Below, piece by piece: positions 2,666 through 29,443 of a DNA stretch of 29,443 bases (positions within the stretch are counted from its first letter, which is position 1; each line of letters begins with the position of its first letter). A program made the position numbers and the translations under genes. The notes beneath the pieces were generated by a model that saw nothing but the letters and a program-made list of their open reading frames with translations, was not told the DNA's origin and made no database searches. The DNA is from Pseudovirgaria hyperparasitica. Its lineage: Eukaryota. Location: NCBI GenBank assembly GCA_010093815.1, contig ML996575.1. One strand, 5' to 3'.

Positions 2666-5600
2666 ATGACACCTTCGCCAGACAGCCCTCCCGTTACAAC
2701 TACACAACCCTCTTCCTTTACACGAAAACAAGTCCTTCAACAAAAGAAAAAGAAAAACTTGGATGCCACAAAGGCCAACGTCAAAGAAGTTCCAAACAAT
2801 GAGCTGGGACAAAAGGATAGGTATGGCGAGCGTATCACAACAATATACCCAAAGGAGGTGTAAGTCGATTCGTTTCCTTTTTCTCTTACTCTTTTCCTCT
2901 TTCTCTCTCTCTCATCTTGTCCCTTATTGCCGCTTTTTAGTGCAAGCGAATACGATACCACATCATTCGCTATTGTGCTAGCTCTGTATCCTTGCTGCTT
3001 AGACGGGGAGTGTTTATCTGCGTGCTATAGACATAATATGAAACCAGTCTAATATGTTCAACAGAGCTGCCTTTCCTGTTGACGATCATGGCGCATCTTT
3101 ACCACCAGACAACGTGCCGTCGAGCATTGCCACGTCTCCTCTACTGTCAGCTTTTGGATCTGCAAACGCTGCATCGGCGCAGTACACGAGTGAATGGACC
3201 AAATCACTCCCATATCCCGCGAAGCAGCATCCCATAGGCAACGGGATCAATATCGGTGGTCCTCCGCCAACCCCCAATTCTCACCCGCACATGTTCAAAG
3301 ATGACTATAATGGTGCTGTGCCTACCTCTGTATCTCCGCCGGCCTCCATAGGTTCAAGACCTCTCAGCCACCCAACACAATTCTCAAGTTTTGGAGGCCG
3401 ACTCCAACCTTCACCTCAGCCGTCAGTCGGACGTGACAGACGGTCGTCTATGTATGCGCGCACTGGTGCGCGTTCTCCCTTCTTGGCACATCCTCCATTG
3501 CCACACCAGCCACAGCCGCATTTTTATGGCCTGCAAAATCTGGATATGGCATTGGGGACGCAGAAGACTGGTAACATCCGTCCAGGAAGTGATGGCTATT
3601 ATTGTGGGTTTGATACACTGAGACTGCCGGGTGAAAGTGCTTCTCGGGCCACAAAGAACGTCTTACTCGTTGGCTATGAAGGAGGTTTTGACGTCCTGAA
3701 GGTTGAACGCACCAAGATGGACGTTATAGGACGCCTGGAAGGACTCCGAGGCGCCGTCATAGGAGCAAAGCTCCTTTCATCCACAGGCCCTGGTGACATG
3801 TATGCGTCCTTGCGTCCACTCGTAGCGCTTACCGTTCATGGCCCGGTAGTAGATCTGGCAAACGTCCCAGAGCCTGATAATGATACTGCCTCCGTAACAT
3901 ATGCGGACACTAGACCTGCAACACCAAAGTCTGCAAGCGATATCAAGGAATACCAAACTACAGTGGAAGTTTACTCTCTTCTGAAGCAAGAACATATCGC
4001 CACGTTATTCGTATGCCCGCCAGTTCCTATTTCAAGTCCAATCGACAGCCCGCTCTTCCGACCTCCGTTACCAACTGGTGATTTGCGAATTGATGCTAGT
4101 GGCCGATTTGTCACAATAAGCTCTGGCAGCAGTGGCGAAGTCTATGTATTTTCCTCGCAACTGAAGAAAGCAGCAACGTCAGAGTCCTCCCATTTTAGAT
4201 GCATAGGTAAGCTGTGGACATCTGTGCAGTCACGGAGTCTCGGCTCGGCCTCGAGTTCTTCAAGCTCTAACGATGCAAGAAATATGGACGGGGATGAGCA
4301 TAGGCCACATGGAGTTCCGGTGGTATCAGTAAGTGGACGATGGATTGCTGTGGCACCACCTGCGTCGGCGACAAGCCTCTCCATCAATGGTTCGGCTATG
4401 CTGTCTGTATCAAACCAGAGCCCTGCAGGTCTCGGACATCATACAGCTCCTCCTCAACCGAATGAGAATTGTGCTGTCGACGCTCCTCAGAGCGACGGGC
4501 TAGCAGGGCGATTCGCAAGAGAAGGAGCACAAGCTGCCGTGCGCGGCGCAAAATGGGCTGCTGGCCGGGGCTTTCAGGCTTATCAATACTATTTTGGAAA
4601 GCCTGGACAGCCTCAGGATCCGATTGGGGCGCCTATTGATCACATGAACCAGCAGTCCTACCCTCAAGCCTACGGACATTTCGGCAGTTCTCCCACTCGT
4701 CACGACTCCACGATGGTATCTGTGTACGACCTCAATCGCTTCTTGGACAACGAAGAGTCTAAGCGGAAAGGGGTCTTAGAACCAATTGCATCATTCATAC
4801 CTCCGCACGGTATCAGTCATTTGTCACTCTCCCCTTCCGGTGTCATGCTTTTGACCGTTGGAAAGAAGGGTGACGTGCAAGAGGTGTGGAATTTGATGAA
4901 GATCACGAACCGCAAGAACCGCAAGTCAAATCGAAGCACTCTAGACGGCCCGCATGTTCGGCAAGTCGCGAGATTCACTCGGATGACTGTTGCTAATGTG
5001 GTTGATGTCGCTTGGACCTCTCCTATTGGACGCGGAGTGGCTATTCTTACTGAGAACGGAACTGCACATTTGTATCCAATGCCATCAGCAGCATTCCAGT
5101 GGCCTCCGGCTAGAAGTATGGCAGCAAAACCGCGCAATGCCTTGAAGGAAGAAGCACCGGTGCTACAAGACTCCGGTCGGACTGGTGCTGTAGGAGCTAT
5201 GAGCTCTGCTTTCAGTGCCCTCAATGGGACGGCACGTAGCTTCACAAACGCCTATCGATCTCAGAAGGGCAGTGAAAGCACTAAAAGCCCTGGATCAACC
5301 TTTGCCCTACCGAGCATGACAACTGCAGTCGGTGCACGAAGTAGCAAAGCCGTTGCTAAAAATCTATCGAAATCTTTAGGGACCGCCGCCAAAAGCTTTG
5401 CCCAAGCTGGAGACAACAGAATTCACCTAGGCTCGACTAGCTCAATACCTGTGTCAAACTTGATATGCTGGCTGACAAGCAGAAGCGGCAAACCCTCCTT
5501 AGCAATCGTTTCAGCAGGTCACATCGACATCTATCGCGTCTTCATGCAGCCAGCACGAGGCAAGCAACATCCAGCCCGTGTGAAGAAGAAACGTATGGTA

Positions 5601-6224
5601 CAATACCAAGTCCCTGATGTTCGCGGCGGTCCGTTCCCACCGTCCCTCATCGCAAAAATTGGCCCACATACACCTGGGGACCTTAACGGCACCAAAGATC
5701 TCCCTCTCGAAGGGATCTGGGCCCTGCGCACTCTTAAGCGCGAACACACCTCTACGAAACCCAAGGAACGCACTCCCCACCCTCTCAGCTTCGCTGAGCT
5801 CGAGACAAGCGCGCCGTTCCTGCCGTTTCACACCGATCGCCGCGCCAACATGTTCTTCACTGCCGAAGACGCGCTCAATCCATCTACTCAACCGCGCACC
5901 ATCAACGATGGTAAAGATGGTGTCTCTCTCACCGACCACGTGCCGCAGCCCTCATTCGGCGGCCGCCTAGCTGGCCATCGCGTCTTCATAACGCATCCGT
6001 CACGTCATCTCTCTGGCGAGGACGATACAGACCTAGACTTGCATGACCAGCTCGATGGAGTGACGGCTGAGAATCGGATGGTAAAGAAGGGCGGCGATTA
6101 CGAGGAAGTGCAGATCATTGTCACTACTCGACGGCGTAGAAGGCTTGAGGATGGGTATGGCGACCAAGAAGGGTTTTTTGAAGATGATTGTGAGGTGCTG
6201 GACTTTGCTGACGATCGTGTTTGA
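2666..6224 (+). CDS. BCAS3/ATG18-like WD40 beta-propeller protein, about 1117 aa. Exons 2666-2859 and 3065-6224
   Basis: 1056-codon ORF with YYCGFD, VLLVGYEGGFDV, ISHLSLSPSGVMLLTV and ARFTRMTVANVVDVAW..TENGTAHLY segments typical of fungal BCAS3-like proteins. An intron 2860-3064 (GTAAGT donor, CTAAT branch, CAG acceptor) joins the upstream 2666 ORF in frame (GT|A = Val). Confidence 0.75.
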
Positions 6225-6779: not shown

Positions 6780-8160
6780 TAGCAAGAATAGTAAGAGTAG
6801 ACTTACTTCGGAGTAAAGAAAAATCACTTTACTCCGGGGTAACTAATTAGTAGGAGATGATAGTAATTCATTTTTTTTAGATATATATTTCTGAGCTTAT
6901 AAAGGAGCTATTGTTTTTTTTTTTCTTTTCTTTCTAGCCTTGGAAACTTGGGCTACGTGCTACTAATTACCCTTTTTATATGGGAATTGAGGTTTTCCTT
7001 CTTCGCTTTTTCTTAATACTATTATTTTTTTTTCTAGGGATTTTCCAACGTGGACTTTTTTTAGACTCTACTCTCTGGTTCTAGAAGAACTAGTACTTAA
7101 TTAAAGTTAACTACTTCTTTATTTCTATCTTCATCTACTGGTAGTAGTAGATTTAATATTCTTCTTATTAGCTTTGGCTTCGTTATACTAGTATATAATT
7201 CTTATATATTAGTTCTCTTATATTCTATGGATATAGACTCTCTTCTAATCTTTCTAATAACTAGACTAGCTCTTAGAGATAGAGTAGTCTAAATAAGTAA
7301 TAGAAGGATTAAAGAGAGTAGAGATAGATATAGTATTTAGGTATCGACCGTTACGGTAACTAACGTAATATAGTAGACAATAGTATAAAGATACTTATAG
7401 AAGTAACTACTAGCTTACTATACTCCTTGAGAGAAGATAGAGGAGATAGAAATGGCTTTATTTAATTAATAATACTTACTATAAACTAATATATACTATC
7501 TATAATATCTACTTTTATATTAAGAATAATGTCTAAAGAGTAGAAAGTAGACGATATAGTTTACTTCTATATTAGACTTACTTAATCTAGCTAATCTAAT
7601 ATATATTAATAATGTTATAGTAGTATAATATAAAATTAGTTCTAGCTACTATAAAGATTACTATAGAAACTATCTAGTTCTAGATACTCTTTATAAGAAG
7701 AGTTTAGCTAGATAGATAGAATAGTAAATTAATCTTACTATAACTTAGTAATCTCTATCTATAATATATAGGAAAGAGACTATATATATATATATCTAGT
7801 TATATCTAATCTTATCTTAAACTATAATAGTCTATTAGTATCTCTTATAGTATATAGTCTAATAATAGATCTAATTAGATATTAGAGAGACTTTTAATAA
7901 AGATAATATCTAATAGCTACTTATAGATAGCCAAGTAGTACTTATACTTATAGAATTTAGTATATTACTACTAGATTAAACTATATATAAGTTACTACTA
8001 AATGGATTAGAGAACTCTTTTAAGATAGCTATTTAATAATTAGATGTATTTTAACTTTAAATCCTGTCTTAGAATGACTAAAGATCCAAAATAATTTTCT
8101 CTTTTCATTTTCTTCATTAATTTCTTTTCTTAATACTCTTACTACTACCATATATAGTAT
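6780..8160. mobile_element. RIP-degenerated repeat/transposon relic, family not identifiable
   Basis: Abrupt switch to very AT-rich sequence with heavy TpA excess and CpA/TpG depletion; no ORF of 60 or more codons. A possible minus-strand frame starting near 8151 (MVVVRVLRKEINEENEKRKLFWIF...) is interrupted by TAA/TAG stops consistent with mutated CAA/CAG. Boundaries approximate. Confidence 0.7.
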
Positions 8161-16395: not shown

Positions 16396-17322
16396 AGTCG
16401 GTTTTTGGGGAGAGTGGAGGATGGATGGTAGGTCTGGATTCTGGTGCAATAACGTCTAGTGTATGGTATGACCATTGAGCACTGGATAGTTGAAAAGTGG
16501 TCTCGATATTTATACACTTCTTTGGTGGTACACGAGATTCAAAATGACGTCTTCACGCGCAAAACTAGCCTTGAGATGGATATCAACCGTGTCTTGAATC
16601 CCGAAAGATTCCCCGGTGAGTATTTCGAAGTAGCAGCATGTGCGTACCAGAATTACCATACAGTCAGACAAGACTAGGCAGAACACCATACACAATACAT
16701 ACGGATCTAAATAATGTGGGGCTTACCGTAAAAGAGCGGAGGCTTCGACATTCCCGATTGGGAATAGACCGATATGGCGGCTGAGACGTCAACATTGAAC
16801 TTTCTCCGCGCGATATCATCTTTGCCAAAAGCCGAAAAGTTGAAGCTGATCATCGGAGCTGTTCCACATGGTAGGAGCTGATCAATTGTGAGGTGAGAAG
16901 AGCCTTGCTACAAGATGTCACAAGATATTACAAGAGTGAGCTGCGCCACAAGTGGTTTTGATGAGACGGAGTGGTTGCGCGAGGCTGCACCATTGCCTGC
17001 TGCCTGCTGCCTGCCTGCTGCCAGCTGTCTGTTGCCAGCTGTCCTCTTTTGCCTCTGAAAGCAACACTACAGAGAATCTTACTCACCAGTCCACACCACT
17101 TTCTACTCGCCTGCCGGACCGTCTTTTCGTCTTAAATTTGTCTCTAGACACCAAACGTCAAGACCACACGCATGCAAGCGGACCCACTGAAGTAGCCTTG
17201 TCGCTCACTGATAGCTCGATACGCCCAAGTGAGATCATCGGTTCTTCTCAGAAAGAGCGTGGCAGAAAGAAAGTTATTCACAATAGCTGGATAGGGGAGG
17301 ACTATCCGAAGTCGAGATACAA

Positions 17323-19353
17323 ATGCGTCTCATCAACACTAAGACGCTGAAGCTAGAAGAATTCTTCGATCATGCTATACCAAAATACGCCATCCTGTCT
17401 CACACTTGGGACAAGGACGAGGTCCTTCTCACAGACGTAACGGGGTCGCTTTGGGACGCGAAAGACAAAGCAGGCTTCACGAAGATCGAGAATTGCTGTA
17501 GGCAGGCTGTCAGAGATGGATGGGAATACGCATGGGTCGACACTTGCTGTATCGATAAGCGGAGCAGTGCTGAGCTGAGTGAGAGCATAAACTCAATGTT
17601 CCGATATTACAAGGAGGCACAGGTGTGCTACGCCTATCTTTCCGATGTTCCACCAGAAGATTTCACGAATTGCGACACTACCGCTGTGGATGACTCGGTG
17701 GAACGATCGGGTAAAGTCGGAGACACCTCTGTGAAGGTGGAAAACATATATGTGGCTGACATGACGGACTGCGGTACGATTAAGACCAATATTTCTGGCA
17801 CAGCCAGAACGACCGAATCCTCCGCGTTTTCTCGAAGTCGCTGGTTTACGAGAGGATGGACGTTACAGGAGCTTCTTGCTCCCGACCGAGTTGTCTTTTA
17901 CAATAGCAACTGGGAAAGTTTCGGAACGAAATCAACTCTTCGGGACGAGATCTCGTCCATCACCAGTATTGATGATCAGACTCTTAATGGTCGCTCGTTC
18001 GATCAATGCAGCGTCGCTCGCCGAATGTCTTGGGCAGCAAGACGGAAGACTACCAGAGTTGAGGATACTGCATATTGTCTCATGGGAATCTTTGATGTCA
18101 ATATGCCTCTACTGTATGGCGAGGGGAATAAAGCGTTTGAACGACTACAACGTGAGATCATGATGAAGTCTACAGATCGATCCCTTCTCGCGTGGCGTCT
18201 TGAAGCAGATGATGTAAACGCTTATCATGCGGTGCTAGCAAGGTCTCCTGCGGCATTCGCGACCTGTCACTCATTACGACCATGTCGTCCTCTGAAATAC
18301 GATGATGCCATCATGGAAATGACAAATCTCGGTTTGCGTATCAGCCTACCTCTATGGCCCTGGTCCGACGGTGATGACCGCATATTCTTCGCACTTTTGG
18401 ATTGCGCTAGCCTATACGAAGATATCACGACAGGTATCGTTCAAAGACAAGCAACAGGAATATTCCTGACCCTAAAAAGAGGCGTATTTCACCGGGTCTG
18501 GGCCCACTTGAGTCATGTTTTATATCGAAACCGAGCTAACGACTTTCTGAGAAGCGACACGTCTTTCGCAATGCTTCGAGGATGCCAGCGTATAACAATC
18601 TTAAACACTATCCAACCTGTGAAGCTCGCTTCTAACACGCCTGTCGGAATTCAGGATTTATATTTATATGTCAATAAGACACAACTCAAGGCTGCTCTTC
18701 AGTCTTACGGATGGGATGCTGAGGTCTCCGTAATGACTAACAAGCTTTTTCCTTTTGAACCGGATGGTAGTCGTTTTGAGTCATGTCATTTTGACCTTTT
18801 GCATTTCCGTCGTTTTGGTCCGCAAGACAGGTGGAGCGGACCAAAACTTGCGATTCAGATTTCGTCGGAGCAACAGCTTCGGGTGACTATAATCATCCGC
18901 TGCGACAAGGATGACGGTATGTGGTGTAATACCTATATTCCGTCACTCTCTCGCTGGAGGACGAGATTGGTCCCTGCAGCCACCATGCTTGGCAACAACA
19001 GGTTTTGGGTTGATCCCTGGGTATGGGCTGCGGACGAAGGCCTGAAGTCGAAGATCAGATCGCCTTGGCCTGGTCTTAACAAGGCTATAACCAGCATTCA
19101 GTCTATTATGCGACTCACGAAAAGTTCAAGGCGCCTGACGTCTTCCGAAGCGCTGGTCCGTCCTGCGATCGTTAGATTGAGTGGTAACCGGGTCGCATGT
19201 ACGGAATTGGTGATTACGTTCGAGGAGACGGCGTTTGATGACAAGAACGCATACGTGCTGCGATTCGACATTATGAAAAGAATGTTTCACACAAGAGACG
19301 CAATGACAACAGTAGGGCTCCGCGCCGATGTGACACGTAAGGTAATATGGTAA
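17323..19353 (+). CDS. HET-domain (heterokaryon incompatibility, HET-E N-terminal type) protein with an unrecognised C-terminal half
   Basis: MRLINTKTL, YAILSHTW, WVDTCCIDKRSSAELSESINSMFRYY, CYAYLSDV, SRWFTRGWTLQELLAP and RMSWAARRKTTRVEDTAYCLMGIFDVNMPLLYGEG motifs. No P-loop/NACHT or WD/ANK/TPR repeats are visible. Confidence 0.93.
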   Translation: MRLINTKTLKLEEFFDHAIPKYAILSHTWDKDEVLLTDVTGSLWDAKDKAGFTKIENCCRQAVRDGWEYAWVDTCCIDKRSSAELSESINSMFRYYKEAQVCYAYLSDVPPEDFTNCDTTAVDDSVERSGKVGDTSVKVENIYVADMTDCGTIKTNISGTARTTESSAFSRSRWFTRGWTLQELLAPDRVVFYNSNWESFGTKSTLRDEISSITSIDDQTLNGRSFDQCSVARRMSWAARRKTTRVEDTAYCLMGIFDVNMPLLYGEGNKAFERLQREIMMKSTDRSLLAWRLEADDVNAYHAVLARSPAAFATCHSLRPCRPLKYDDAIMEMTNLGLRISLPLWPWSDGDDRIFFALLDCASLYEDITTGIVQRQATGIFLTLKRGVFHRVWAHLSHVLYRNRANDFLRSDTSFAMLRGCQRITILNTIQPVKLASNTPVGIQDLYLYVNKTQLKAALQSYGWDAEVSVMTNKLFPFEPDGSRFESCHFDLLHFRRFGPQDRWSGPKLAIQISSEQQLRVTIIIRCDKDDGMWCNTYIPSLSRWRTRLVPAATMLGNNRFWVDPWVWAADEGLKSKIRSPWPGLNKAITSIQSIMRLTKSSRRLTSSEALVRPAIVRLSGNRVACTELVITFEETAFDDKNAYVLRFDIMKRMFHTRDAMTTVGLRADVTRKVIW

Positions 19354-19674
19354 AAAGTCGTCAGACGCAGTTGATACTATGTTATCTTTGATCCACGTAG
19401 TAAAGGCTTGAGCAATTAAAGTTAAGCAGAAGATTGGGGACTTGCTATTATGCAGGCCAATTCACTATCGACCCTCGTACACCATACCGTCAGACATATC
19501 AGCGGCAAATACATTCATTGATCGTCGAAAGAGTGAAGGAAAAGGACGATCGAACACACAATGTATTTCTGGAGGTGCATTCAGCATGACTCCTCTAGCT
19601 ACGGATGTCGTCAACGTTCGTGTCTATAATTCTATAATTATGACCGAAAGCCCACAATGCGTCTAATTCGTCTA

Positions 19675-20710
19675 TCAATCGACCTTGACGACAATGGCCG
19701 TCAGACTCGTTGCACCACCGTAATACCTCGTCGCCACGACTGGCGTGACCAGGCTCAGAACCTCCGTATCATCCACCTCGTATCGCGGATACAAGACTGT
19801 CCTCAAAGAATCCGTACTCCGCAACAGAATCAATGCTCCCGGCCTCATGCACTTTGCCACGCCCACCAAAAGGTCCTTCTTCGCATCCGCATCGGCGCCA
19901 ACCATGGCAGCGAAATGTACAACATCAAACTCGCGCAAATCCGTCAGACTGTCGGCATCGATCTGCTCAAAGGACACGTTCTTGAAGCCGCATGAGGTCA
20001 CCAAGGAGCTGGAGAGCGCAATGGCGTCCGGGTTGCGGTCGATATTGTGGTAGCTCACATCGTCAGAATACCTCTCTGCATAGCACAAGGACGTGAAGGG
20101 TGTGGGACCAGAGCCGATGAAGGCAATGCGGCGGATCGGGGGTAGAGAGAGCTCGCCCAGGGCAGTATCGAGAGTGTTGACTTCCATACGGGCAAGTTGC
20201 CTGTACTGATCGAGATAGGGGAAGGAATTGAATGTCTTGAGGGCGGTGGTTTTGGCAGGGGCATTGATGACTTTGCGGGCGAAGTCGGCTTCGAGGAGGT
20301 ATTCGGCGTCGCCCCAGAGGGTCCAGAGGCGCGGGATGAGGGGGACGATGCGAGGGTCGGAGAGGATCTGTGGAAGATGAGTGAGCAACGCTGGAGCAGA
20401 ACAGGCCGGATTGACAGCCACATACCTTGCTGTCTTGCTCGACGGTGGTCTTTGTGGTGGTGACGAGGTCGAAGAGCTGGTTGAAGAGCTTGCTGTTCTG
20501 CGGATTGGGCTCCAGACTTTCGAGACGCTCGAGACGGGCAAACAGGGCAAGAATGCCGAGGGCGAGACGTTCGGTGTCGTCTGGGTGGTAGGGCAGGTCG
20601 AAGGCATACCTACCGACGGTGTGCTTCAGGCCGTTTGCGCCGGCAGCCACAAGAGGATTCGCACCATTCACACCGTTCGCAGCGGCAGCGTGCAGTGGCG
20701 TGCCGGGCAT
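19675..20710 (-). CDS. Nicotianamine synthase (NAS)-family SAM-dependent aminocarboxypropyltransferase, 325 aa. Exons 20710-20426 and 20367-19675
   Basis: A GTATGT..CAG intron (20425-20368) joins LESLEPNPQNSKLFNQLFDLV to AEYLLE, FPYLDQYRQLARME, IAFIGSGPTPFTS, FDVVHFAAMVG, KKDLL and MRPGALILLRSTDSLRTVLYP, all collinear with plant/fungal NAS motifs. Confidence 0.9.
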
Positions 20711-23195
20711 TTTTTATTTTGTTTCCTTTTTTTGATGTCTTCGCAATGATATTGGATGGTGATGTTATTATATCTACCGACGCGACGCGGCGGCGCAAGA
20801 GGACTTTTGTACGCACGACGTGACGTGCACGTGGACAGCAGTGTGCTCAGACGTGCGTCTGTGCACGGCGACGACGTGGGCGTGCATTAGGTTTGCGAGG
20901 TGATGCGGCTACAATGGTGTAGCTGCAGCAGACGAGTGCGTTGTGGTGAGGGTTGAGGAATTAGCGACATGGATTTTGTGGCAGTAAACAATGAGGTGTG
21001 TTTGGTGGTGTGTTGGGTGTTTAGGGTGTTTAGGGTTGAGGCGAGGGAGATCACGCCGCCTTGGCTGGTTAAGGGCCTTGGAAAACGCTGTAGATGCCTG
21101 ACAAGGGGAGAAAGGGGGGGGAGGGGGGGTCAGGCAGTCTGGAGCCGAGGGTATGTCACAGCACTCGTGGGACTGGGGCGCGGCACATGTCATCCCGGCG
21201 CTCTGTGCGACTTGGGCAGCATTGGGATGAATGGATGTTGCCTGACTATCTAGGCATCATTCGGCTTTGGACGAGTCATGACAATACCGTACCATTACGA
21301 AAGAATACAGCACAGCGTAACAAACATATGTATTATATCAATACCCAAATATCACATTACATCACTTCCCTCTGATAGTGGTACCAATATAGTATACGCC
21401 GGAGTCTAGTCCTGAAGTGGCATAGCCAGAGCGTTAGTGAGCGGGAGTCAATGAACGGTATCTGCATCAGGCCTAGCGTTCCAGAATATTCCATGCCGGT
21501 CCATAGCACCCGGTATAGTCAACTAGTATATTGTACCTATAGGATATTACGCACGTAAGCAAGCAAGTATGAGTTGTGTATTAGCATGTCTAGCAGAGTG
21601 TGACACTGTCTGGTCTCACCAGACTGGACAAGTCAAGACTCATCAGGACATGACACGACGGTTCTCAGGCTGCTCCGGTCTGCTTAGATTCCAGGACCTC
21701 GGACAACTGCTTTGAATCTAGTGCAGCCCCTTACTTGGGAGGTCCAGGCGCGTATCTGCAAGGGATCCGTCAACTAGGTTCAGTCTGCCGTAATCAGCTA
21801 GCGTGACATCTATCCGAGGACCGAACTCGAGGTACCTGACCTAACCTCCTCCTCCCACCACTTCACCCAATCCACTATCAAAACACACAAGCTGCTCGCC
21901 ATCACGGTGCCAAACTCTGTTTGTACCTGGAAACCGTCCACTTGCAACTCGGCCTCGCCCTCTCTCAGCCTTGCCCACCCAGCCGCGCAGTCCTAATTCA
22001 GCCATGAGCACTTGAACCCACTCTAGCTGTGTGAAAGTGGATGCTTCACACTCCATTAATCCGACAACTCCACGCTTTCTTCACAAACCAGGCAATCCAC
22101 ACGCAAGGATGTCCGATAAGGTTGCATATGGCACTCGGAACCTTATTTAGACCCAACGGTGCGCACGCGGTGTGCTGCTTTTTTTTCAGGCCTATGGCAA
22201 AGCAGGCTGCTTTGTGGCCTGGCTGGCCTGCCTGCCTGTCTGTCTGTGTGAGGCACACGACACACAAGTTGTTCCAACACGGAACCGGGAATCGGGAACC
22301 GGGAAGACACGCGATCCAGCCCTCGACTCTTTTCTTTCTCCTTATTTCTCCAACTTCCAGGGGGGGGCATTTGTATCATGCCATGCCATGCCTGTGCCAT
22401 GTGACGTGCACAGGCGCGTTTTGAGTTGGTCTTTTTTTTGCTCGCCGAACTCGGGGAGGGACGGGGCTCGCTCACGCTCAAGACTGCTTTCTCGCCGGTT
22501 GGTCATACGACGCCAGCAGCGACACAAGGCAACTGGCCCTGCGCGAATTCGCTGGTATCTGATGCCGGGAATAACTTGTTGCTCTTTTGAGCGAGAGAAG
22601 GGCGGTGTATTTTGCATACCGTGATGGTCGAGGCGGCGCAGTGCAGCGCTGTGCTGCTGTGCTGGCTGTCGACGTGAGGCAGTTGGCACACTGATTGACT
22701 GGATGGTAACTGCGCATCGTTTGACGTGTTCAATTGTTGTGCCGTCCTCGGATTGCATGTTACTGCTGTCGCTTCACTACTACTGACAGACTAATTACTA
22801 CTGCGCCTATTATTGACATATCCACTATCCACAGGTTCACTCTGAAACCGGGGCGCTTGGCGTTCTGGCCGATGTCGTCCGGAGCAACTAAGGAAAGAAC
22901 GACCAGCCGGCCCTCAACCTTAAAAAAACTTGTGGGAACAAAGTGGGAAGGAATGATGTAAGCCCTCGGAATTAATGAAGAAAGGGCGGTCAACGGTTTG
23001 GTTTGCGTACCCTGATGGACGTTTCTGCGCCTTCCCTCTTCTCCTGCTAATCTCATCTGATTAGATTGCCTCCTCTTCACTTCTTCAAAACTCCACCATC
23101 CCTTGCGCCCCCCCTTCAACAACCGTTTCTTCGATCTCAACATCGAGAATCTGTTTCCTTTTCTTTTTTCTTTTCCACCTACAGTCTTCGCCGCT
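20711..23195. promoter_or_regulatory. About 2.5-kb shared divergent promoter region between the NAS-like and ATP-grasp genes
   Basis: The two genes face away from each other and there is no credible CDS in between. The region holds an ACGTG cluster (20817-20879), TGTGCTCA (20842-20849), an 8-bp inverted repeat (22116-22146) and intron-like signals at 22958-23184. Confidence 0.6.
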
Positions 23196-25226
23196 ATGCT
23201 TTCTTCTGCTCATATCGACGTTTGCTGCGTTATCAAGCTCATTTCGCCGACGTCCCGCGAGGATGCGTGTGCCACTCGGCTCTTACACGTCCTCGTGGGC
23301 CACAATTCCGACTTCGATCCACTCGAGATGCTTGGAGAGGGTGTGACGCTACTGAGTTACGAGCAAGTTCCGCGCAGAAGAGAAGGCTGCTCTGCTGCCG
23401 TGCAGTATCTGTTCGACCAGATGGAATCGCTGCCGGACTGTCGATATCCGAAGTTGTTGACCTTTATCCTGCCATACACCGATGGATACGTCGTCCGATC
23501 CGACTTCATCAACGTTCGCCTGGGCGCTCTTGCTGGACAACGTGAACTGCAGCAGTTTCTCAAGCCATTGCAGTACTGCAGAGGGCCAAAGGCCGACCTG
23601 AACAGCAACAGCCTCGACGACGGCACATTGATGTCGCTGATTAGCTCTGCTGCTGGTGTTATAACCAGTCCATTCGACTACGAGTTCAACTTGAAGGATC
23701 TAGAAGACGGCATCGCGGGACGCATCTCCTACCCCTGGCTATCATCAACGCCCATCACGCCACGACGTGTCGCCCTATTCCGCGGCCGTCCGAATCATAA
23801 GACCGGCTTTCCTGTCTACGCTGCCGCAAAAAACCTGGGCCTCTCTCTCGTTGTCATTGATGAACCAGGTCATTGGCTTCAGCCTGACAGCGATGAGAAC
23901 AGAGACCTACGCGAAGCTTTCATCCCCATCGATATCACCGAGGACGACGGCCTCCCTGCTCGCATCGCCACTGCTGTTGCAGAGTCCCATTATCACATCG
24001 ATGGCATCTTCACCCTCTCCGACAATTACCTCGTCTCCGTCGCTCGCGCAGCTGAGCTCATGCGTTTGCCTACGTGTCCTTCTTCCGCATACGAAGTCGC
24101 CTACGACAAACATCAAACACGTCGTCTCCAAGCCGCGCCGCATGAGTTTGCCAGTGTCAACAGCTCTGCGGACCTCCTCTCTATCATCGACTCTCAAGCA
24201 TTCCTGCCCACCTATCCACTCATTGTCAAACCTCGCACCCGTGGTTGGTCGTCTGAGTACGTCACAAAAGTCCGTGACCAGGCAGAGCTCGAAGCAATCA
24301 TGGCCAAGATATGCAAAAAGTATCCTGGTGGCGCGCTCATCGAGCCATACTACGATGGCCCAGAGCTCGATGTCAACATCATCGTATCTTCCGGGAAAGT
24401 CCTCTACACTGAGATCGTCGACGAACTGCCTAGCAATGGTGACACCTCCGATGGCAGCAGCGCCGATTTCCTCGAGAGCGGAGTGCTCATTCCATCCAAG
24501 CTGCCACGCTACGAGCAGGACGCCATATGCAAGCAAATTGCCGACATAATCATCCCACTCGGCTTTACAGATGGCGTCTTCCACACTGAGGTCCGCCTTA
24601 CGCGATCAAGCATGGCGTTCCAGGCAGATCCTACAACTGGTCTAGTCGACCTCGCGCCTGCATCCTCCGAGAAAGCAGACGACGAGAAAGAGCCTGCCGT
24701 GCGCGCGCATATCGTCGAAATCAACGCTCGTCCTCCCGGCATCTTCAGTCAAAAGCTCTCGGCACACACCTTTGGCGTCGACTACTTCGCCGCACGCATG
24801 CTCGCCGCCATTGCCGACCCTGCACGTCTCGCCCTCACCAGCATCCCCTTTTCCGTCTCCACTATGCCGCCCGGCGCCCAGTGCCACTCCTTCATGCTCT
24901 TCCTACCCGTACTCCGACCGGGCGTGACGGACGGCGAGGACGTCCTGAACAGAGTGATGGAGCGCGTGCCGCACATTGCCGAGCGTGTTGTGGACAGCCA
25001 CTGCTTCTTCACCAAGGGCGACACGCTGCCTGACCCAAGCGAGACAGTCGCATGCTTCGCGCGCGTAATTCTGGCCAGCACAGAGGGCAGGGAGCACGTT
25101 ATGGGCATGGCGGACAGGGTTAAGAGGGAATACTTTAAGGACGATGAGTACGAGCAAAGCGTGAAGATTCAGGACGGCCTTGTGGGTAAGGCTAGCGACG
25201 ACAGAGTGGATTCCTGTCGCGAATAA
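23196..25226 (+). CDS. ATP-grasp amino-acid ligase (FsqD/carnosine synthase/L-amino-acid ligase-like), about 676 aa from the first in-frame ATG
   Basis: AAAKNLGLSLVVIDEPGHWL, IDGIFTLSD, AYDKHQTR, YPLIVKP..GWSSE.V.KV, LIEPYYDGPELDVN, GFTDGVFHTEVRL and the catalytic IVEINARPPG (ExNxR) motif. The ORF-track start at 23103 is a TTG in a pyrimidine-rich leader. Confidence 0.9.
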   Translation: MLSSAHIDVCCVIKLISPTSREDACATRLLHVLVGHNSDFDPLEMLGEGVTLLSYEQVPRRREGCSAAVQYLFDQMESLPDCRYPKLLTFILPYTDGYVVRSDFINVRLGALAGQRELQQFLKPLQYCRGPKADLNSNSLDDGTLMSLISSAAGVITSPFDYEFNLKDLEDGIAGRISYPWLSSTPITPRRVALFRGRPNHKTGFPVYAAAKNLGLSLVVIDEPGHWLQPDSDENRDLREAFIPIDITEDDGLPARIATAVAESHYHIDGIFTLSDNYLVSVARAAELMRLPTCPSSAYEVAYDKHQTRRLQAAPHEFASVNSSADLLSIIDSQAFLPTYPLIVKPRTRGWSSEYVTKVRDQAELEAIMAKICKKYPGGALIEPYYDGPELDVNIIVSSGKVLYTEIVDELPSNGDTSDGSSADFLESGVLIPSKLPRYEQDAICKQIADIIIPLGFTDGVFHTEVRLTRSSMAFQADPTTGLVDLAPASSEKADDEKEPAVRAHIVEINARPPGIFSQKLSAHTFGVDYFAARMLAAIADPARLALTSIPFSVSTMPPGAQCHSFMLFLPVLRPGVTDGEDVLNRVMERVPHIAERVVDSHCFFTKGDTLPDPSETVACFARVILASTEGREHVMGMADRVKREYFKDDEYEQSVKIQDGLVGKASDDRVDSCRE

Positions 25227-25656
25227 ACCAGGTCGCCGTCCGTCCCGTGCACACACTTTTTCTCTTTGTATTTCTAGGCCTCATCTTTTATTTCTTTGCT
25301 TTCAATCCTTTCGGTCTTTTTTTCGGTCCGTTTTTTTTCCCTTATATTCCCGGTGGGGTTTTTTGGCGATGCGTATAGATGGGTGGTGTTGCTGCTGCTG
25401 CTGGTAGGGTGGTGATAGTGGAGTTTGGTCGTTGGCCTTTTGAAAACGGTATAGATTTGTTGCTGTAGTTGTAGTCGTAGTCGGTAGAGCTGTATATTAT
25501 TCGTGAAGTGGAAGTAAATGGCCTTTGTGTCTGTGTCGGTGTCTGTGAGTCTGTGTCGGTGTCTGTGTGTCTGTATCTGTAAATGTCCGCGTCTGTGCCC
25601 CTGGATCTATATATATCTCTAAATATAACATCTACGGCACGTGTCTATTTGTCTGT

Positions 25657-25657
<1 letters not shown>

Positions 25658-25735
<78 letters not shown>
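25658..25735. repeat. (CA)39 perfect microsatellite within a GTCTGT/GTGC low-complexity zone (about 25525-25950)
   Basis: 78 nt of uninterrupted CA read directly. Confidence 0.97.
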
Positions 25736-25738
<3 letters not shown>

Positions 25739-26793
25739 CTACCGTAACATTTCGTCTCGTCCACGTGTCTGCATCTGTGCATCCATGCGTATATATGTAT
25801 ATACTGTAGGTACGTGCGTGCGGCGTACGCGGACCGTCTAATTATCTCTGTGGTGTCCGCATGTGCGTCCGTGCATGCAGCCTATGTACACAACACCGCC
25901 ACACACATTACGCACGCACCATCGCTGTCTGTAGCACACATACGCACACTAATTAACTACCAGCATCTTTTAGCCCTCCGCCCCCGATTCTAGCTTCGTG
26001 GGTTGCTAGGTCGTGCGTAGATGGGGGTATATGGGAATGTGGATATTATTCTACCTTGTTATTAGCTAATTTGTGTTTCAACTATGGAATGTCTTTTCTT
26101 CTATATATGTCTGTGTTGTACAATTATGCACGGTGTATGTGTAGGATTGGAAGGAATGGATGCCGTGGGATTAGGTGAGGGCTTTGGACTGCTTTGTGCG
26201 TGCTGGACTGGGAGTCAGTAGTTTGTCACTGTCTTGCACTGTTTGGCGGATGGGGTTATAGGTGAGTATATCGATATAGTCTGGCGGGTAACGGATGATT
26301 GGCTCGGTTAGAAACACTGTACAAGAGACTAAATATCATAGGGAAGAATGAGCCAGGTAGTAGAGAAAAAACACTTAATTCCCTCGTACTCCATAAGTAC
26401 TATGACTCTTTAGCTTTCCTCTATAAATAATAAATCCACTTTATTCTCAAACGGCTTTCTTTGTCTGTTTGCGTGATTTTTTGAGGACATTGCTAGGTAT
26501 CATGGTGCGTAGGTATCATGTTAATTAAACTAGATGGTGACTTTTTCTCCAAGAGTAACATTCTATCTAGGTATATCTAAACTTTACAGTCTAAACTCCT
26601 TCAATTCTATAGTTTCTTCCGGTATTACGCTTGTGAACTACGACCATGTTCTTGTCCCGGTATACTACCCTCTCTTTTATGCTTCTTATAGCGCTTGTCA
26701 CTCCCTCCTTTGCATAGAGAACTTATACGATTAATAAAGCGTCATGTAGGGGCTTTCCCTTGGACAACTTTATACAGGAGGCCCGGTATATAT

Positions 26794-26994
26794 AGTGATA
26801 TACTCCGTACCCTGTACGGATAAGGTTTTATAGGATAAGTAATCCGTCCCCGTTATACCGTACCCATAGAGTCTTATCTATATATCTATACGGGGTAAAT
26901 ATATATATATCTAAGGTAGAATATATAGCTAATGACGCCTATAATATTTATTAGTAAATCACTATATAAACTCTAAAAACTATATAGAATCACG
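26794..26994. mobile_element. Solo-LTR-like element (about 201 bp), copy B, more heavily RIP-mutated
   Basis: Same orientation as, and homologous to, 11305-11503. Degenerate termini AGTGAT...ATCACG; many differences are transitions creating TpA (tgcgtctgtacggggtgaatatgtat vs tatatctatacggggtaaatatatat). Confidence 0.6.
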
Positions 26995-27556
26995 CGTTTT
27001 TAGTGCTTATTCTTCTCTATAATATTATAGATATATATATTATTTATAGAGTTATATTCTTACTATATAACTTACGCTATTTACTAGGTCATTCCTTATA
27101 TAAATACTAAAAATAATATTTTATCTATATTATAGATAACGATAAATATAGATAAAGTAAGGGAGACTATATCCTATTATAAACGGCGTATTATAGCGAT
27201 ATCCCTTTATTAGTTTATTACTAAATCCGTATAGTAATCTATTAGGGTGTTATAGTATATATATCTTAAACTTACCTCCTTATCTCCTTATCTTCTTATC
27301 TCCTTATCTTCTTATCTTCTTATCTCTTTATAATAGTCTATAACTTACTCTTTATAAGTAGTAATAGTAACGTTAGCGAATAGTAATCCTTATCTTCTCT
27401 ACCTTCTCTTAATAGTAAGTATAAGCGTAAGTATACCTATCTAGTATAGGATTATTACCGTAAGGCTATCTAGAATAAGCCTATTATAAGAGGTAAAAAT
27501 AAGATCTAGTACTATAATATTAAAGGCTATTAGAAAGGTATTATAAGTACTAGTAC
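26995..27556. mobile_element. RIP-mutated repeat fragment containing seven tandem 8-mers CTTAYCTY (27271-27326)
   Basis: TpA-rich, no ORF; units cttacctc cttatctc cttatctt cttatctc cttatctt cttatctt cttatctc. Family unknown. Confidence 0.55.
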
Positions 27557-29443
27557 TATTAGGACTTAGCCTTAGGTAGGACCCGACCTACATGTACCTT
27601 AGCTAATAGGGTTAGAAGGTGACGTGAAGGGCGGTAAACAGTTACGTGCTAGATAGATCGGCGTCCCTTTATATATATACTCTTAGATTCCTACCGAAAG
27701 GGTTCGGTAGTAATTCGTTCTATAATAGAATATACTCTATTATTCTATCTAACTATACTACTATCTAATAACCCTATTCTTATATTCGAATTACTCCCTA
27801 TATAGTACTATAGTTAAGATAGTCTAACTAGAACCAAGAAGGTCAACACGATCTACTATAGGGATAAGTAATACTATATTAAATAATAGAGATCCTCTAT
27901 AATCGGTATTAATCCTAGCCGTTTCTAACTAAGAAGTAGAAATATTAGACTAAATCACGGAGCTTTTAGACGAAGAAATGGTAGATACGCTAAGTAACTT
28001 CTAATAATATAAAGCCGGATAACGAGTTATGGCGGAGCTATACGAGGTATTATAATAAACCATCGCTAAACTTTAGAAATACGTTACGAATTAGGCTCGA
28101 GAGATTTAAACCCTTAAAGAATAGATAGAACGCGCGAAACTCCTCGTAAAGAGACGAGAACTTAAGGAGTCTCTTAAAGAACTACGCCGAACGATAGTAG
28201 GTAGACGACTTCCTATACTAATTTAGGCGGAATTAGTTCACCTACTATTAGAGTTATAATAATCTACTATATACCCGGCCGCTTCGTTACCGATTTACTC
28301 TACTTCTTCCCTAGGTATACCGAAACCTAAAGACCCGACTATATTTATAGGGAAGAACTAAAAGGAGTAGAAAGACTAGAAGAGAGACTACGAAAAGTAC
28401 TTCCTTAATAACCCTCTACTCTTTTCTACTAAAGTATAACGCATTTCGTTCGGAGAATAATACCTAGACTTATAATCCCGCGATTAATAGGATAGATAGA
28501 AGGAAGTACAGCTACTATCTATGATAACCTAGGAATATTTAGCTATATTTATACTAAACACCCTCGGAACGGATAGAGAACGTGAAAGAAAGGCACTATC
28601 TAAGTTAAGAAGCGTGGTATAACGACCGAACTAGACACCTACTTAACTACTATAATACCTCTAAAACCTATAGAATAATATCCCTATACTATAGAAAAAT
28701 ATTCGTATATTCTAGTTTCGCGAAGTACTACTTCCGTTAATCCATAAAAGACTAGAAATAGTATTATTAAGTTTTAACTATCTATACGAATTAGAGAAGA
28801 AAGCTAATAAATACTACCGCATCCTTAAGAAACGCGGCTCTCTAGGTAAAACCGACGAACCCTATACGGGTTAGAAATAAGGTTAATCGAATACGTTCGA
28901 TTAAGAGTAACCTTACCGTAATTAGCGCTAGAAGAGCGTAAATCGGGGTAGAAACGCGTTAAGAGGACACTAAAATAATTAAGGTAGTGCTTCTTAACGC
29001 GGAAAAGGATAAGGCATAGGCTTAAATATAACGCCTATTATAAAATAGTAGGATTATAGCGCACTTCGTTACTATAAGTATAGAGAAATAGAATATATTT
29101 CACCTAACTATAAGAATCCAAAAAAAGAATAGACTAGGACACGAGACCTAACCGCGTTCTTAGCTAAATTATATATACTTAGGAGGAGCCGTAGCGCCTT
29201 CCGGCGAGTAAAGACCTAATATTACTAAAAGTATCGTTACCTATAGTAAATAGTAATAAAACTATATAGGCCCTTATAGATACTAGTATAGAAGATAACT
29301 ATATTTCGTCGATTCTTATAAAGGAGTATAGATTATCGTACGATCTTAGTAAAGTTAGCCGAACTATTATAGTTAATAGATATAAAGTTAGAACTTTAGG
29401 TAAAGCTATAATGAATTACGAAGTTCATAACTTAAAGATAATA
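27557..29443 (+). mobile_element. RIP-inactivated Ty3/gypsy-type LTR retrotransposon: 5' LTR about 27557-27770, gag about 27978-29132, start of pol (protease); truncated by the window edge
   Basis: LTR termini TATTAG...CTAATA (RIP of TGTTAG...CTAACA). gag relic PKPKDPTIFIGK near 28320. Mutated CCHC knuckle YYKYREIEYISPNYKNPKK near 29070-29125 followed by an A-run (possible frameshift site). Protease motif ALIDTSIEDNYIS at about 29271-29309 (from D-T-G-A). Many TAA/TAG stops. Gypsy rather than copia is inferred from gag/pol style; RT and integrase order is not in the window. Confidence 0.85.

Follow-up and report, generated by a model that had tools for sequence, protein, structure and literature searches.

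A conserved head-to-head pair of nicotianamine synthase and ATP-grasp ligase genes in fungi, a candidate route to modified nicotianamine without a nonribosomal peptide synthetase

Plants rely on nicotianamine as a central metal ligand, and related compounds of bacteria (staphylopine and others of its kind) matter for zinc acquisition; in fungi, to our knowledge, only the synthase itself has been studied. One such enzyme, NcNAS of Neurospora crassa, is described as a proven nicotianamine synthase in the available text of PMC10248798, and its gene is NCU09855 (Table 1 of PMC6437048). Here we analyze a stretch of 29,443 nucleotides from the fungus Pseudovirgaria hyperparasitica (contig ML996575.1 of assembly GCA_010093815.1; hereafter, the window), in which a nicotianamine synthase (NAS) gene on the minus strand and a gene for an ATP-grasp ligase of the L-amino-acid ligase (LAL) type on the plus strand stand head-to-head. 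Their start codons lie 2485 bp apart, and from stop codon to stop codon the pair occupies positions 19675-25226. In the literature outside subscription journals and supplements, we found no paper linking a NAS with an ATP-grasp enzyme or L-amino-acid ligase and none on NCU09854, the corresponding ligase gene of N. crassa OR74A; NCU09855 itself surfaced there as a table entry only (PMC6437048).

We propose that the two genes form an old, conserved, divergent module that encodes a two-enzyme route, independent of nonribosomal peptide synthetases (NRPSs), to an amide-modified chelator of the nicotianamine type, a reading that we hold with moderate confidence and whose chances we regard as about evenly balanced. 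The novelty would lie in the partner enzyme of a nicotianamine-type metallophore pathway, the activity of NcNAS being already known. The pair would probably escape rule-based cluster finders, as it lacks a core enzyme of the polyketide synthase (PKS), NRPS or terpene kind.

The gene pair and its transcripts

The NAS gene comprises two exons (Table 1), and its spliced product is identical to a 325-residue P. hyperparasitica protein that carries the NCBI name nicotianamine synthase (P0048). The Pfam NAS family (PF03059) matches exon 2 with an E-value of 2.2e-38 over profile positions 48-253 of 276. Residues E121 and Y150 align to E81 and Y107 in the structure of the archaeal MtNAS and to E77 and Y106 of AtNAS1, the Glu and Tyr to which catalytic roles are assigned in the portion of PMC10248798 available. 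Across an alignment of 13 NAS sequences, Y150 shows no variation, and E121 and E117 show almost none; E117 is the equivalent of AtNAS1 E73, a residue that the same portion of PMC10248798 reports, from mutagenesis, to be required for nicotianamine formation. Near the reaction chamber, the window NAS has VGAD at the place of the VGMD motif, where NcNAS has VGMS and rice NAS3 has VGMA.

The partner gene is a single open reading frame (ORF) with Pfam matches to ATPgrasp_N (1.6e-17) and ATP-grasp_4 (6.2e-08). Its first ATG, at 23196, is a reasonable start, because homologues align over as much as 97% of the frame; the database form (P0001, 563 residues) corresponds to this frame in a shortened gene call. 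The best match in the Protein Data Bank (PDB) is BL00235 (E 8.6e-15 with the single sequence, 1.8e-25 with a profile), and a Foldseek search with an AlphaFold2 model of the ligase (pLDDT 86.2, pTM 0.88) returned 3vot at E 1.1e-23, with a TM-score of 0.78 on the target and 21% identity. Its kin by both structure and sequence are the L-amino-acid ligases BL00235, BacD/YwfE and RizA. Residues K345, E383, E508, N510 and R512, the last three forming the motif E508-x-N510-x-R512, do not vary among 23 sequences and are conserved throughout the family; we take them to be nucleotide- and metal-binding.

Two parts of the ligase call for separate comment. The LAL C-terminal domain 2 (PF18603) gave no match at E <= 0.01 in the window ligase, and the fold alignment still spans the C-terminal part; PF18603 is present in the NAS-linked ligases of bacteria considered below. 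At the other end, the protein has an extra region of about 190 residues that is conserved across the fungal family from about residue 85. A separate model of the N-terminal 200 residues (pLDDT 84) had its best hit among 48,161 chains in the C-terminal half of RizA, with a Z-score of 6.0, which is too weak to name a fold. One ligase relative, P0032 of Ophiocordyceps polyrhachis-furcata, is annotated with 1091 residues as against 560-750 in most others, and may represent a fused domain or a merged gene model.

Evidence for transcription comes from the contigs of two runs (X1 and X2) of one sample from one study, whose depths cannot rank genes. These contigs skip exactly positions 20368-20425, the NAS intron, and the runs therefore derive from RNA. 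Transcripts of both genes are present in this one sample, and they run outward from a contig-free stretch of some 0.5-0.7 kb. On the NAS side, a low-depth contig spans 21099-21319 at the outer end of the leader. On the other side, the ligase contig is colinear and without joints from 21814 (X1) or 21840 (X2) to beyond 25400, and the segment that precedes the ligase start is either an unusually long leader or an upstream transcript merged by the assembler. Comparison with related loci revealed no conserved ORF in this segment (21814-23195), and Rfam gave no match at E <= 0.1 in the intergenic interval 20700-23200. A sequence-only reading of this DNA had described an intact two-exon NAS-family gene on the minus strand and an intact ATP-grasp ligase gene on the plus strand, diverging from one intergenic region. 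That description is borne out throughout: by the Pfam match, the catalytic Glu and Tyr and the spliced contigs for the former gene, by the single 676-residue frame, its Pfam domains and its LAL-type fold for the latter, and by the outward contigs of both in one RNA sample.

Conservation, promoters and partners of the pair

To survey the pair in other fungi, we scanned metagenome contigs with an alignment of ligase relatives, which yielded 64 loci, and then sought NAS in them by tblastn with the window NAS. A NAS gene is present in 15 of the 64, always upstream of the ligase on the opposite strand and about 0.9-2.1 kb from its estimated start. These 15 are every locus of the ligase's own clade that has about 3 kb or more of upstream sequence; the 28 loci that fall outside it and have 3 kb or more upstream are all devoid of a NAS. 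A tree of 56 ligase sequences places all of the NAS-linked ones in one 28-row clade (SH-aLRT 99), and the window sequence groups with Periconia proteins; in a larger FastTree of 159 rows, the NAS-linked clade has 23 terminals and gains Myriangium duriaei and two Ophiocordyceps species. Among named genomes, NAS and ligase bear consecutive GenBank accessions, on contigs of equal length, in Cercophora newfieldiana, Podospora appendiculata, Neurospora tetrasperma, N. crassa and N. hispaniola, and they are near-linked in Ophiocordyceps camponoti-leonardi (locus tags 5895 and 5899).

The sequence-only reading had held that the two genes belong together, and had asked whether they co-occur elsewhere and whether further neighbors, such as MFS or OPT transporters, are conserved with them. 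On the first count the pair recurs across fungi, and a restriction of the arrangement to this genome is refuted by the 15 metagenome loci, the five Sordariales genomes and the bacterial operons described below. On the second, no such neighbor is conserved in the window and eight representative loci: an all-against-all comparison of their ORFs shows that these nine sources share NAS and ligase alone, and the same comparison over all 65 sources again gave no third gene. Apart from alternative-frame shadows, the nine-source comparison gave two other matches, one with L038 (HET domain) and one with L001 (carboxylesterase).

Relatives of the ligase that lack a NAS have other neighbors, namely adenylation-thiolation-reductase (A-T-R) NRPS-like enzymes (8 loci), ABC transporters (7), POT peptide transporters (6), or a pyridoxal phosphate (PLP)-dependent enzyme together with a rhodanese (4). 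The family as a whole looks like a set of tailoring or assembly ligases of small fungal pathways, and the subclades without NAS are candidates for several further small, core-less pathways.

The same two families also meet in bacteria. In 4 of the best 80 of 229 bacterial and archaeal NAS loci, a LAL-type ATP-grasp gene lies directly downstream on the same strand, and a search with those bacterial ligases returned 64 loci, 19 of which have a NAS abutting upstream on the same strand. Carriers include Phytoactinopolyspora, Jiangella, Aeromicrobium, Acidimicrobiales genomes, Sorangium and others. Some operons of this kind lie in zinc-uptake or siderophore loci (Table 1), which suggests the same chemistry beyond fungi; we found no paper on them in the literature covered. 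The window and Sorangium ligases are 25% identical over 285 residues (E 2e-15), a kinship at the superfamily level, and the bacterial pairing is an independent parallel to the fungal one.

This distribution already disfavors the view that the pair is a frozen accident of gene order with no functional link between its members. About eight metagenome lineages share the arrangement with the named Sordariales and the window, and there is near-linkage in O. camponoti-leonardi; bacteria have paired the two genes independently and on the same strand; and no other neighbor has been conserved alongside. We consider an accident scarcely credible.

A more substantial alternative is that the two genes belong to the same regulon but carry out separate chemistry. 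A metal-responsive bidirectional promoter, like that of aspf2/zrfC in Aspergillus fumigatus, would then serve both, and the ligase would make a small peptide of its own, for example a metal-binding dipeptide. The bacterial loci lend this idea weight, as 45 of the 64 LAL loci have no NAS. At one of these, in Promicromonospora (L168:2716-9078), the ligase stands beside an MFS transporter, a CobW/COG0523-type GTPase and a ribosomal S14 paralogue, a set of neighbors that we take to be typical of zinc-starvation regulons; in that context, a ligase of the LAL type can serve a metal-starvation response without NAS. Set against these loci is the strictness of the linkage, which is head-to-head in all 15 in-clade loci with enough flank, in two fungal classes and with two NAS clades, and which is matched by abutting NAS-LAL operons in bacteria; such linkage exceeds what co-regulation usually preserves.

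Inspection of the intergenic regions of related loci adds to the case for co-regulation. The element ATCTGATAA occurs once each in 7 of the 9 regions examined, where shuffled sequences lead one to expect 0.2 occurrences in place of the 7 found, and it matches the SreA motif ATCWGATAA as given in the available part of PMC2610380. All of the regions that bear it belong to Sordariales-type loci (L001, L002, L007, L010, L013, L016 and L038), which amount to about four independent lineages with motifs, because L001 has flanking sequence in common with L013, and L002, L007 and L010 are closely related to one another. A second element, GCCATCAAGGT, matches the ZafA core CARGGT (available part of PMC6070888); it is mostly present in two copies of one orientation, with one copy 18-60 nt from the GATA element. 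CAAGGT is found 20 times in the Sordariales-type regions, against 6.1 expected. Together, ATCTGATAA and GCCATCAAGGT form a composite element about 0.7-1.1 kb upstream of the ligase start. A Mac1-type motif showed no enrichment in the intergenic regions examined.

These motifs point to zinc and iron control of the Sordariales-type pair. The intergenic region of the window has neither motif, and the suggestion is therefore restricted to the Sordariales pair. They favor co-regulation, as does the finding that ZafA works on a divergent promoter in A. fumigatus (PMC6070888, in the same available part), and they are silent on shared chemistry. Weighing promoters and linkage together, we think separate chemistry within one regulon unlikely.

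A tree of 60 NAS rows shows that the ligase has partners of two kinds. The window NAS falls in a long-stemmed clade A (SH-aLRT 100, stem 1.91), along with sequences of Dissoconium, Diaporthe, Colletotrichum and Gnomoniopsis, whose sister group consists of actinobacterial NAS-family proteins and a chytrid; clade B holds NcNAS, the NAS of the Sordariales-type loci, and sequences of Helotiales, Xylariales and a moss. The window protein is 28% identical to NcNAS and 28-35% identical to members of clade B, and the position of clade A suggests either old paralogy or gene transfer. Ligase-linked NAS occur in both clades, the clade A cases being the window and, probably, P0081 with ligase P0008; co-residence of the partners is weakly indicated for P0008/P0081, P0021/P0117 and P0026/P0153 by equal lengths of their longest contigs, given that an unrelated bacterial contig (L137) also has a length of 7834. 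Set side by side, as the first reading of this DNA had proposed, the two gene trees show one ligase clade that holds all NAS-linked ligases, with partners drawn from two NAS clades. Across the divergence of clades A and B, however it came about, the ligase has retained a NAS as its partner.

The distinctness of clade A gives some room to a reversed order of steps, in which the product of the ligase, a dipeptide or acyl-amino acid, would be the acceptor to which NAS adds at least one aminobutyrate group, in the manner of CntL acting on histidine and MtNAS on glutamate. The C-terminal motifs of the window NAS are unlike those of NcNAS and plants, and one of the actinobacterial sister sequences (P0168, from the Phytoactinopolyspora operon L066) is itself LAL-linked. 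NcNAS, however, has the same neighbor and makes nicotianamine from S-adenosylmethionine (SAM) alone, and E117, a mark of nicotianamine-forming enzymes, is kept in the window NAS; with these two facts in view, we judge the reversed order to be distinctly unlikely. A further alternative is an azetidine dipeptide, for which NAS would release azetidine-2-carboxylate or a one-unit product that the ligase would couple to an amino acid. ATP-grasp genes are drawn near bacterial AzeJ-type azetidine synthases (Fig. 4 legend, PMC11794875), and the NAS of clade A are uncharacterized and divergent, but AzeJ and VioH are relatives of class I methyltransferases that stand outside the NAS family, according to the available text of PMC11794875, and enzymes of the NcNAS type, which make full nicotianamine, are partners of the same ligase clade. 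An azetidine product is thus very improbable.

A proposed pathway and its weak points

From these observations we infer an order of steps, substrates, a product and a role for the module. In the first step, NAS would condense aminobutyrate parts of SAM into nicotianamine or a close analogue, as judged at the level of the family, from the N. crassa orthologue family. In the second, the LAL-type ligase, using ATP, would convert a carboxylate to an acyl phosphate and then to an amide bond, the likely partners being the nicotianamine-type product, through its amino-acid-like end or a carboxylate, and an amino acid or amine. Such a route, with neither PKS nor NRPS, would end in a nicotianamine-type chelator bearing an amide modification, whose most likely role would be in zinc or iron homeostasis. 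We prefer to place NAS first because NcNAS, with the same neighbor, makes nicotianamine from SAM alone.

Several points weigh against this proposal, some of which concern the window itself. Its intergenic region is without metal-response motifs (CARGGT is absent from 20430 to 23008, and an exact ATCWGATAA is absent throughout the window), and no transporter is conserved with the pair in the window and the eight representative loci. The window NAS sits on a long branch, and we know of no member of clade A that has been characterized. Its nearest named kin (Dissoconium, Diaporthe, Colletotrichum and Gnomoniopsis) are absent among the 47 ligase matches listed, an incomplete set given that 202 clusters reach E <= 1e-30, and NAS may well work alone in many fungi. 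Other points concern the ligase. At 14 positions the NAS-linked ligases have residues peculiar to their clade, which show no clear charge pattern and are not notably basic, as a tricarboxylate substrate might demand, and the 45 of 64 bacterial LAL loci without NAS imply that the bacterial ligase subfamily is not strictly dependent on a NAS product. Finally, NcNAS yields plain nicotianamine on its own in vitro, and nicotianamine has been found in N. crassa (available text of PMC10248798). The ligase is therefore unnecessary for nicotianamine, and its action on nicotianamine is a step that we infer.

The occurrence of the pair outside this genome nonetheless gives the proposal reach. The ligase has been tied to NAS for hundreds of millions of years and adjoins the proven NcNAS, which predicts a new nicotianamine-derived metabolite, and NCU09854 provides a concrete gene for this question in a model organism. 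More tentatively, and with somewhat less than an even chance of being right, NAS and the LAL-type ATP-grasp ligase may constitute a cross-kingdom unit for unseen amide-linked (aminoacyl- or peptidyl-) nicotianamine metallophores, found in Neurospora, many ascomycetes, actinobacteria and Sorangium and induced by zinc and/or iron starvation. If this is true, the fungal 'nicotianamine' phenotype would be due in part to an amide-linked derivative.

Surroundings of the pair and comparison with known systems

Just downstream of the NAS stop codon, and convergent with NAS, lies an ORF with a HET domain (Table 1). The spliced NAS contig continues for about 2.6 kb past 19400 to lower coordinates, over this HET gene (16800-19400); the two genes may have overlapping 3' ends, or two transcripts may have been fused by the assembler. 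Two AT-rich blocks, at 7000-8000 and 26500-29443 (24-36% G+C), have indices resembling those of repeat-induced point mutation (RIP), with TpA/ApT of 1.6-1.9 and (CpA+TpG)/(ApC+GpT) of 0.13-0.14, and from 26179 to the end of the window there is no open frame of at least 70 codons. A Pfam scan of 15 ORFs from the rest of the window, which intron-split genes could escape, found no transporter domain; an opine dehydrogenase (CntM) domain was found neither in the scanned window ORFs nor in the related fungal loci. The HET boundary, the flank with RIP-like indices (from about 26.5 kb onward), which had been taken for a RIP-mutated transposon nest, and the lack of a transporter domain in the scanned ORFs agree with what had first been read from the letters. 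The accessory-type location that was claimed at the same time means little, as the pair itself is old and vertically conserved.

Two further features of the window were noted. A long (CA)n microsatellite lies at 25650-25720, directly 3' of the ligase gene, and gives TH and CV repeats in frame translations. An intact frame of 1060 residues at 3042-6224 on the plus strand has no Pfam match and is grouped by a protein atlas with Ascomycota BCAS3-domain (WD40) proteins (score 0.98).

Table 1. Features of the window (plain coordinates) and of related loci (locus:coordinates).
Feature	Location	Strand	Details
NAS exon 1	20426..20710	-	95 codons from ATG 20710; weak Pfam NAS N-terminal match (E 0.0081, profile 5-47)
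NAS intron	20368..20425	-	58 nt, GT..AG (CT..AC on plus strand); skipped exactly by contigs of runs X1 and X2
NAS exon 2	19675..20367	-	230 codons plus stop; residues 96-325 of P0048
NAS 5' untranslated leader	20711..21111	-	about 0.4 kb; spliced contig to 21111 (X1) and to 21074 (X2, then adapter-like loose end)
Presumed shared bidirectional promoter	21320..21813	.	putative role; no contig in either run, a gap that proves nothing on transcription
Ligase transcript leader, or merged overlapping upstream transcript	21814..23195	+	1382 nt, 18 upstream ATGs
ATP-grasp ligase, LAL type	23196..25226	+	single exon, 676 residues plus stop
HET-domain ORF	17287-19353	+	Pfam HET E 9.5e-17
NAS-linked fungal ligase loci	L001-L007, L010, L011, L013, L015-L017, L038, L040		about 8 distinct lineages
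Composite promoter element	L001:8900-9250, L010:8650-9000, L013:2600-2880, L016:5900-6330, L038:6650-6960		
Ligase subclade loci without NAS	L044:5190-9464, L043:2040-5309, L026:2574-3509, L019:1848-2732, L029:3486-4244		
Aeromicrobium NAS-LAL operon	L084:5911-12104		beside znuCBA and ECF/ABC transporter genes
Phytoactinopolyspora NAS-LAL operon	L066:998-8254		beside IucA/IucC siderophore, decarboxylase and aminotransferase genes
Sorangium NAS-LAL operon	L080:3636-10601		with dioxygenase, MFS and aminotransferase genes
Jiangella NAS-LAL operon	L155:3218-6278		with SDR and MFS genes

Comparison with described systems places the two halves of the pair in different company. On the side of the ligase, BL00235, BacD/YwfE and RizA are the nearest solved relatives by sequence and fold and share the ATPgrasp_N and ATP-grasp_4 domains, whereas the fungal enzyme has its additional N-terminal region of about 190 residues and no LAL_C2 match. 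FsqD, AnkG and Cp1B resemble it as stand-alone ATP-grasp enzymes of small fungal biosynthetic clusters, but none of the three is paired with a NAS. The sister subclade beside A-T-R NRPS-like genes, a setting like that of the fsq cluster, gives a hint of the FsqD-like nature that the sequence-only reading ascribed to the window ligase. The function of FsqD is merely proposed, and that of AnkG has been shown in vivo only, as far as Extended Data Fig. 2 of PMC12568646 indicates; Cp1B (PDB 9cjn) is absent from both the sequence-profile and the Foldseek match lists of the window ligase.

On the side of the pathway, the copper-responsive cluster of Pseudogymnoascus destructans is likewise fungal, metal-regulated and Cnt-like, and has been proposed to make a metallophore; it differs in having an MFS transporter, an opine dehydrogenase and a SAM-using enzyme, with no ATP-grasp gene among those named in the available text of PMC12113139. 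The Cnt pathways themselves (CntK/L/M, for staphylopine, pseudopaline and yersinopine) likewise combine a NAS-family enzyme with one tailoring enzyme to make a chelator without NRPS, and lie in zinc-starvation loci (PMC10248798, in its available text). Where they have an opine dehydrogenase, the window has an ATP-grasp amide ligase, and its scanned ORFs include neither a CntM-like gene nor a transporter. Nearer in kind are NcNAS (NCU09855) and the class III 'core' NAS of fungi and mosses. The window NAS, although only 28% identical to NcNAS and set in a separate, long-branched clade, shares with it the Pfam family, the catalytic Glu and Tyr, the extra Glu, the short core-NAS form and a single intron, and the N. 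crassa gene has the same ATP-grasp neighbor.

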